A DNA stretch of 43,800 bases. It comes from Escherichia coli (GTDB lineage Bacteria; Pseudomonadota; Gammaproteobacteria; Enterobacterales; Enterobacteriaceae). A model generated the notes under the pieces. It ran no database searches, had not been told where the DNA came from, and saw only the letters and a list, made by a program, of their open reading frames with translations. Where the stretch lies: the NCBI RefSeq assembly GCF_003334315.1, contig NZ_QOWR01000040.1; one strand, written 5' to 3'. Positions within the stretch are counted from its first letter, which is position 1. Each line of letters begins with the position of its first letter. Of the stretch, positions 1,849-2,017 are shown piece by piece. Made by a program: the position numbers and the translations under genes.

Positions 1849-1857
1849 AAATCTACT

Positions 1858-2015
1858 CCAGAAAAAAGAGGGTAGCAGCGTTAACTGCTACCCTCGAAGA
1901 TTGTTACCCAGCGTATTGCGGTTTTCAGGCCCGATGGGGAACGACCATCAGGCGTATAGTCTGTCCGTGCTACGTAACAATCGAGAGGGCTGGAATTTCC
2001 GCCCCTGGTTCTTGT
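1858..2015 (-). ncRNA. sroC: sroC-like sRNA region in the gltI-gltJ spacer (processed 3' product of gltI mRNA), ending in a hairpin just before gltJ
   Basis: Perfect 11-bp inverted repeat GAGGGTAGCAG-cgttaa-CTGCTACCCTC at 1868-1895, followed on the minus strand by a T-run; SroC is known to map to the gltI-gltJ intergenic region. Exact ends not determinable from sequence. Confidence 0.5.
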
Positions 2016-2017
2016 AA

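Follow-up and report, generated by a model that had tools for sequence, protein, structure and literature searches.

An exact copy of the small RNA gene sroC in the gltI-gltJ spacer of an Escherichia coli glt operon interrupted by IS150

The Locus and the Question

The glt operon considered here lies on a 43,800-nucleotide stretch of Escherichia coli DNA (assembly GCF_003334315.1, contig NZ_QOWR01000040.1), which is referred to as the window. The binding-protein gene, gltI, is separated from the permease genes by a spacer containing a long inverted repeat, and gltL is interrupted by IS150. This arrangement raises the question of what the spacer encodes and what would be left of its function in an operon that has lost gltL. 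The original prediction, made from the sequence by itself, placed a terminator inside the operon and matched the spacer to the locus of the GcvB sponge SroC. The operon is organized as follows.

2018 to 2926, minus strand: gltI, intact, according to the annotation of identical DNA in CP53 and NZ_CP144928
1108 to 1848, minus strand: gltJ permease gene, 246 amino acids, intact
434 to 1108, minus strand: gltK permease gene, 224 amino acids, intact
78 to 434, minus strand: 5' fragment of gltL, 119 of 241 codons (357 nt), truncated; annotated as "missing C-terminus" at the identical junction in NZ_CP144928 and REL606
1 to 77, plus strand: right end of IS150, cut by the window edge; the transposase coding sequence ends at position 51

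The spacer between gltI and gltJ was predicted to span positions 1849–2017, and these limits are exact, as its 169 nt are bounded by the gltI stop codon (2020–2018) and the gltJ ATG (1848–1846).

Identity of the Spacer

The spacer holds one RNA gene, which begins and ends slightly outside the limits set by the stop codon and the terminator.

1860 to 2022, minus strand: sroC small RNA gene, 163 nt (Rfam RF00369; 100% identity to K-12 b4763; minimum free energy fold)

When the entire window was scanned against Rfam 15, a full-length match to RF00369 (sroC) was returned at this position, with a score of 174.8 bits (gathering score 45 bits), an E value of 5e-37 and alignment to model positions 1–163 of 163. 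The 5' end of the match falls within the last sense codon of gltI, and its 3' end lies past the U-run of the terminator. The curated record of K-12 MG1655 lists the ncRNA sroC (b4763) at 686681–686843, 12 nt from the gltJ start and overlapping gltI by 5 nt, and relative to both genes the match in the window is placed identically. Around b4763 the window and K-12 MG1655 are identical at 191 of 191 nt, flanks included, and when a third strain is added to this 191-nt alignment every column is still identical. The proposed assignment to the SroC locus, which was to be checked against the annotated sroC coordinates, is thus borne out, and the minus-strand RNA of about 160 nt that had been anticipated agrees with the annotated 163 nt.

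Consequently, positions 1860–2022 of the minus strand are almost certainly E. coli sroC, an RNA that would arise from leaky intra-operon termination and RNase E cleavage and would destabilize GcvB. Judged by its sequence, the element is an exact copy of a small RNA gene that is already known and well characterized. It matches SroC of E. coli K-12 in sequence, position, strand, length, terminator and both GcvB sites; the surroundings differ in that the window has an IS150-interrupted gltL and lacks the IS5D element found upstream of gltI in K-12.

Other origins for an RNA from this region were considered. A permissive Rfam scan of 1700–3400 returned sroC and only two sub-threshold chance matches, to sbrA (25 versus 45 bits, overlapping the terminator) and to naRNA4 at 3247–3308, and a riboswitch or other RNA family was therefore rejected. 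No sigma-70-like promoter was found on the minus strand of window positions 1–3400. This result is consistent with SroC arising by processing and not as a primary transcript, and an internal promoter was rejected on the same grounds. A plus-strand open reading frame at 1790–2017 (75 amino acids, GTG start) is a mechanical one, antisense to sroC and gltJ and without support.

In E. coli genomes annotated automatically by NCBI, gltI is the only feature listed under the spacer, whereas the curated K-12 record names sroC. Because sroC is left out by automatic annotation, a reader of raw sequence can easily mistake the spacer for something new. The importance of the present assignment is slight beyond correct annotation, and SroC is a textbook example of an mRNA-derived RNA sponge, linking amino-acid transporters via GcvB.

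The Terminator Hairpin

The 3' part of sroC and the start of gltJ contain the following elements.

1868 to 1895, minus strand: terminator hairpin, 11 perfect pairs plus U·G, 4-nt loop (−22.7 kcal/mol, z −7.45)
1862 to 1867, minus strand: U6 tract of the terminator (from the sequence and the terminator scan)
1846 to 1859, minus strand: gltJ ribosome-binding region, GGAG at 1859–1856 and ATG at 1848–1846, directly 3' of the terminator

Direct reading of the plus strand gives the inverted repeat GAGGGTAGCAG (1868–1878), cgttaa (1879–1884) and CTGCTACCCTC (1885–1895), which confirms the perfect 11-bp stem, and six T's on the minus strand confirm the T-run claimed along with it. The RNA of the operon strand reads GAGGGUAGCAG-U-UAAC-G-CUGCUACCCUC, followed by UUUUUUCU, so that the 11 Watson-Crick pairs are joined by one U·G pair to give 12 pairs around a 4-nt loop on the minus strand only. 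The hairpin is located 12 nt upstream of the gltJ start codon and is the top site in the terminator scan (12 pairs, 7 of them G-C). Folding of the 41-nt terminator segment yields −22.7 kcal/mol with z = −7.45, and none of 200 shuffled sequences folds equally well. An intrinsic terminator consists of a G+C-rich stem-loop followed by a U-run on the transcribed strand, and here a stem with G-C at 7 of 12 pairs is followed by UUUUUUCU. On the plus strand an A-run precedes the hairpin and no T-run follows it; with the T-run on the minus strand only, the terminator is one-directional and serves the glt operon. Hairpin, U6 tract, fold and position all agree with the claim of an intrinsic terminator lying within the operon, between the binding-protein and permease genes. 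By inference from the literature, the U6 tract corresponds to the 3' poly-U tail of known SroC, at which Hfq binds.

The 43.8-kb window contains five perfect hairpins with a stem of at least 11 bp and a loop of 3–8 nt, as compared with a total of 2 in twenty shuffles, confirming that the sroC hairpin is not a chance feature. The other perfect hairpins with stems of this length, at 10379, 11234, 23986 and 43285, each begin with an A-run on the plus strand and are likely terminators of neighbouring genes.

Fold, Conservation and Covariation

The 163-nt SroC has a minimum free energy of −66.3 kcal/mol (z −6.5). In the corresponding fold an unpaired 5' stretch is followed by stem-loop 1, by the long stem-loop 2 and by the terminator.

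1986 to 2005, minus strand: stem-loop 1, SroC nt 18–37 (minimum free energy fold; 87.4% of cells paired, 2 pairs changed on both sides)
1899 to 1983, minus strand: stem-loop 2, SroC nt 40–124, holding both GcvB sites (minimum free energy fold; covariation)
1959 to 1966, minus strand: GcvB-binding site GGACAGAC, SroC nt 57–64, complementary to GcvB nt 156–163
1938 to 1944, minus strand: GcvB-binding site UCGUUCC, SroC nt 79–85, complementary to GcvB nt 13–19

Within the species the spacer is nearly universal: of 5426 complete E. coli genomes, 5422 contain it, 5250 of them at an identity of at least 99%. For comparison across species, one genome of each species was scanned with a search pattern, which gave 97 stretches, 56 of which are true homologues in full-length context; 55 distinct homologues and the window make up an alignment of 56 rows. 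The homologues occupy the same gltI-gltJ position in 15 genera, including Escherichia, Salmonella, Citrobacter, Enterobacter, Klebsiella, Raoultella, Kluyvera and Kosakonia as well as Lelliottia, Phytobacter, Pluralibacter, Superficieibacter, Intestinirhabdus, Huaxiibacter and Siccibacter. Since the search pattern contained GGACAGAC, the conservation of this site in the alignment is circular.

Covariation was assessed on a structure that itself comes from the window sequence, and under this structure 88.3% of cells in the alignment are paired, as compared with 37–54% for slid pairings. The covariation score is 0.199 (0.046–0.069 for slid pairings), compensatory change is found in 160 cells as compared with 58 ± 8 in shuffles, and 16 SroC pairs have changes on both sides. 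In the apical helix of stem-loop 2, 97.2% of cells are paired and 6 of the 9 pairs show compensatory changes. The loop that caps this helix contains UCGUUCC and is near-invariant throughout the 56 enterobacterial sequences, in contrast to the covarying stem below it. RNAalifold run on the raw MAFFT alignment missed stem-loop 1 and the lower part of stem-loop 2 owing to indels, and counting of pairs on the mapped minimum free energy structure performed better.

Blocks of the alignment outside both GcvB sites are also invariant or near-invariant, for example CCUCUCGAU (SroC 35–43) and AAUCUUCGAGGGUAG (SroC 120–134). These blocks could indicate that the spacer combines sroC with a regulated terminator, wherein a cis element or trans factor acting at the conserved nucleotides tunes both read-through into gltJKL and release of SroC, a possibility raised by Miyakoshi et al. 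(PMC4474525). The blocks, however, coincide with the base of stem-loop 2 and with the terminator in the minimum free energy fold, which may be sufficient reason for their conservation. Moreover, no riboswitch or leader family of Rfam matches the spacer, and an alternative anti-terminator pairing is not evident. Regulation of this kind is considered improbable.

The terminator itself is well conserved. Of the 56 aligned sequences, 54 retain its core, GGGUAG/CUACCC (GGGTAG/CTACCC in DNA), and the window is one of them; all 54 have a U-run of 4–7, with 12–14 nt separating it from the gltJ ATG. The stem is of variable length. A 9-pair hairpin of about −13.7 kcal/mol is found in 42 of these 54 sequences, while terminators from Escherichia and Kluyvera have 11–13 pairs and range from −16 to about −24 kcal/mol (the strongest being −23.9). 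In comparison with Salmonella Typhimurium and most other genera (9 pairs, −13.7 kcal/mol), the terminator stem in the window is longer (12 pairs, −22.7 kcal/mol). The longer stems of Escherichia and Kluyvera arose by different insertions in the loop region. The restriction of the long stem to these two among the genera sampled is a minor detail and only mildly new.

Conservation of the U-run also bears on the possibility that the structure is a 3' stabilizer of the gltI message, similar to the REP/BIME elements of malE-malF and hisJ-hisQ, which would block 3'-to-5' exonucleases after processing. Those elements resemble sroC in being located 3' of the binding-protein gene of an ABC operon and in giving an excess of binding protein, and a 12-pair hairpin would shield a 3' end as well. 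Stabilization of the first cistron is also described as a commoner route to binding-protein overproduction in ABC operons than a leaky terminator (PMC4474525). Consequently, of the original description of this spacer as "the usual arrangement", the outcome, excess binding protein, holds, but the mechanism does not. A search for the REP consensus GCCKGATGCGRCGY with up to 2 mismatches found none within 1849–2017 and 22 matches elsewhere in the window, and a REP/BIME stabilizer was rejected for lack of this consensus in the spacer. The U6 tract directly behind the hairpin, kept as U4 to U7 in all 54 sequences that retain the terminator, likewise argues against a stabilizer, and the literature describes a leaky Rho-independent terminator with transcripts ending at sroC (PMC4474525, PMC11347164). 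The mechanism is one of termination rather than of exonuclease blockage (PMC4474525), and a stabilizing role in place of termination is very unlikely.

Some homologues depart from the common layout. The spacers of Citrobacter braakii and Phytobacter (L025, 1861–2150; L063, 1622–1907; also L035 and L080) are 284–288 nt long as compared with 169 nt, with about 115 nt of unrelated sequence between the gltI stop codon and the body of SroC, so that the usual SroC 5' end beside the stop codon is displaced. The 5' flank of Intestinirhabdus is divergent in the alignment. Two Siccibacter species (L022, 3537–3759; L072, 11846–12068) keep stem-loops 1 and 2 and both GcvB sites in an sroC that lacks the conserved terminator and is not followed by the gltJ start.

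Complementarity to GcvB

The interaction of SroC with GcvB has been probed in detail by Miyakoshi, Chao and Vogel (2015, PMC4474525), who described binding sites of 7 or 8 nucleotides located 14 nucleotides apart and GcvB positions, protected or mutated, at G14, G18, G156 and G160. A search for complementarity between SroC and K-12 gcvB demonstrates that both published binding sites (BS1/BS2) are present in the sroC of the window. The gap between GGACAGAC and UCGUUCC is 14 nt, as published, and the GcvB segments with which they pair (nt 156–163 and 13–19) are the regions protected in the published probing. Complementarity statistics failed as proof of pairing, as 8-mers complementary to GcvB occur in 31% of shuffled SroC sequences. 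Since matches of 7–8 nt are not significant alone, the pairing claim rests on the published compensatory mutations and probing.

The same findings weigh on the idea that the hairpin is solely a polarity device. This reading, in which the hairpin sets the GltI:GltJKL ratio and the leftover RNA is an inert decay intermediate, is scarcely credible: although the position of the terminator just before the gltJ ribosome-binding site is conserved, deletion of sroC alone has the same effect on GcvB and OppA levels as ΔgltIJKL, SroC made as a primary transcript suffices, and compensatory mutations in both binding sites restore regulation (all PMC4474525), a near-invariant UCGUUCC loop above a covarying stem is not required of a mere terminator, and the reading is already refuted for Salmonella and E. 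coli K-12.

The assignment to sroC as a GcvB sponge is accompanied by a site for GcvB upstream in the same operon.

2969 to 3004, minus strand: CA-rich GcvB site in the gltI 5' untranslated region (duplex with GcvB nt 63–95, −38.7 kcal/mol)

The site (3004–2969) is complementary to region R1 of GcvB, and gltI is a published GcvB target (PMC4474525). On the basis of this predicted duplex, the site completes the published feedback loop.

Proposed Mechanism

A mechanism can be proposed for the window by carrying over leaky termination, RNase E processing, Hfq dependence and GcvB decay from published work on identical or orthologous sequence. First, transcription would proceed from a single gltI promoter through gltI. 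A fraction of polymerases would then stop at the terminator (hairpin 1895–1868 and U6), 12 nt before the gltJ start, to give a gltI-sroC mRNA, while the remaining polymerases would read through to gltJKL; this partial termination would leave the binding protein in excess of the membrane components. These steps follow the description of one promoter upstream of gltI that gives rise to a full-length gltIJKL mRNA and to a shorter gltI mRNA ending at a leaky Rho-independent terminator (PMC4474525). In E. coli, northern blots show gltI-sroC transcripts of about 1200 nt and read-through transcripts of about 2500 nt (PMC11347164).

Next, RNase E would cut at window position 2022, in the last sense codon of gltI, and release SroC as a stable, highly folded RNA of 163 nt that carries a monophosphate at its 5' end and, at its 3' end, the terminator and poly-U tail bound by Hfq. 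Release by RNase E is 5'-end-dependent and guided by Hfq (PMC4474525), and the strongest RNase E site of the gltI 3' region in E. coli is exactly the SroC 5' end (PMC11347164). GcvB itself promotes SroC production in E. coli (PMC11347164). The released RNA would pair with GcvB by means of GGACAGAC (1966–1959) and UCGUUCC (1944–1938), leading to degradation of GcvB by RNase E. Finally, loss of GcvB would de-repress amino-acid and peptide transporter mRNAs, with gltI among them through the site at 3004–2969 in its 5' untranslated region. The published counterpart of these last steps is an RNase E-dependent decay of GcvB upon pairing that de-represses many amino-acid and peptide transport mRNAs (PMC4474525). 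Additional SroC targets include MgrR, fliE and flhBAE (PMC9438474).

The pathway would be expected to operate in this particular strain. The window, 43.8 kb long, does not include gcvB, hfq or rne, which are expected elsewhere in the genome because the window is 99.97–99.99% identical to an ordinary E. coli chromosome.

Comparison with other small RNAs places SroC in a known group. OppZ (oppABCDF), MalH (malEFG), SdhX and DicF are similarly derived from operon mRNAs by termination and RNase E, and are similarly Hfq-dependent (PMC9438474). In contrast to these RNAs, SroC originates from a leaky terminator inside the operon rather than from the operon end, and its main target is another small RNA rather than an mRNA.

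The IS150 Insertion in gltL

The insertion point of IS150 in gltL lies between window positions 77 and 78. The gene is disrupted, as had been claimed; the 357 nt that remain abut the right end of IS150, of which the window contains 77 nt. A junction with 100% identity to this one is found in 44 of 5426 complete genomes, among them REL606, BL21(DE3), C41 and C43. In NZ_CP144928 and REL606 the two halves of the gltL pseudogene measure 357 and 372 nt, a sum that is 3 nt above the intact 726 nt, and the excess may be read as a short target duplication. A literature search on gltL together with IS150 found nothing.

The suggestion that sRNA output would be the main function left at the glt locus is an inference; it agrees with the Salmonella result that follows, but gltI, gltJ and gltK are still intact. 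There is good reason to hold the broader notion that regulation would persist without the transporter, since in Salmonella ΔgltJKL leaves GcvB and OppA levels unchanged while deletion of sroC does have an effect (PMC4474525). The IS150 insertion, 1.4 kb downstream, would be expected to leave SroC production untouched while abolishing transport. The natural IS150::gltL background, which also occurs in BL21 and REL606, offers a ready-made ΔgltL context in which regulation by SroC could be separable from transport.

It is also conceivable, albeit rather unlikely, that in IS150::gltL strains (this one and the E. coli B laboratory lineage) the glt locus persists chiefly as a gltI-sroC unit producing the small RNA, and that the longer terminator stem of Escherichia and Kluyvera shifts output toward SroC and GltI at the expense of read-through. 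If true, the long-stem terminator would be an evolutionarily tunable dial for GcvB levels.

The transposase of IS150 is on the plus strand and directed towards the window. Any read-through would be antisense to gltL-gltK-gltJ and to sroC, and the sroC hairpin has no T-run on the plus strand to stop such transcription.

The E. coli B lineage carries IS150 at this very nucleotide of gltL, yet the window is only 98–99% identical to REL606. Assignment of the window to E. coli B was rejected on the basis of this identity, of an extra REL606 gene between gltI and lnt, and of the seven tRNA genes of REL606. The nearest complete genome is CP53, with 99.97–99.99% identity over 78–43800. The junction shared by a non-B window could reflect either one old insertion followed by recombination or a hot spot for IS150. 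When the window is compared with NZ_CP144928, which has the same junction, all 46 differences of the first 6400 bases fall at 237–1663, inside gltK-gltJ, and there are zero differences over 1664–6400. With a divergence of about 3% over 1.4 kb, this gltK-gltJ segment resembles a recombination tract.

Other Observations in the Window

The gltI-lnt spacer (2927–3322) is the "empty" 396-nt form. At this location K-12 carries IS5D about 104 nt upstream of gltI and REL606 carries a 1878-nt gene for a rhomboid-family protease, and the spacer therefore seems to be a recurrent insertion site. It contains a REP-like sequence at 3264–3277 in addition to the weak naRNA4 match described above.

The tRNA cluster at 10410–10892 has five genes (Gln-CTG, Met, Gln-TTG, Leu, Met), as compared with seven in K-12, REL606 and CP53. 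Between 10486 and 10622 the window lacks approximately 221 bp, a loss that recombination between duplicated Gln tRNA genes would be expected to cause. Few complete genomes cover this stretch in one piece (43 at a coverage of at least 80%), and some of those listed keep three Gln genes.

A match to the small RNA family ES036 (CssrF) in Rfam is found at 13218–13260 on the plus strand, scoring 41.1 bits against a gathering score of 37.6. The match adjoins a REP pair at 13184–13213 and is probably REP-associated.
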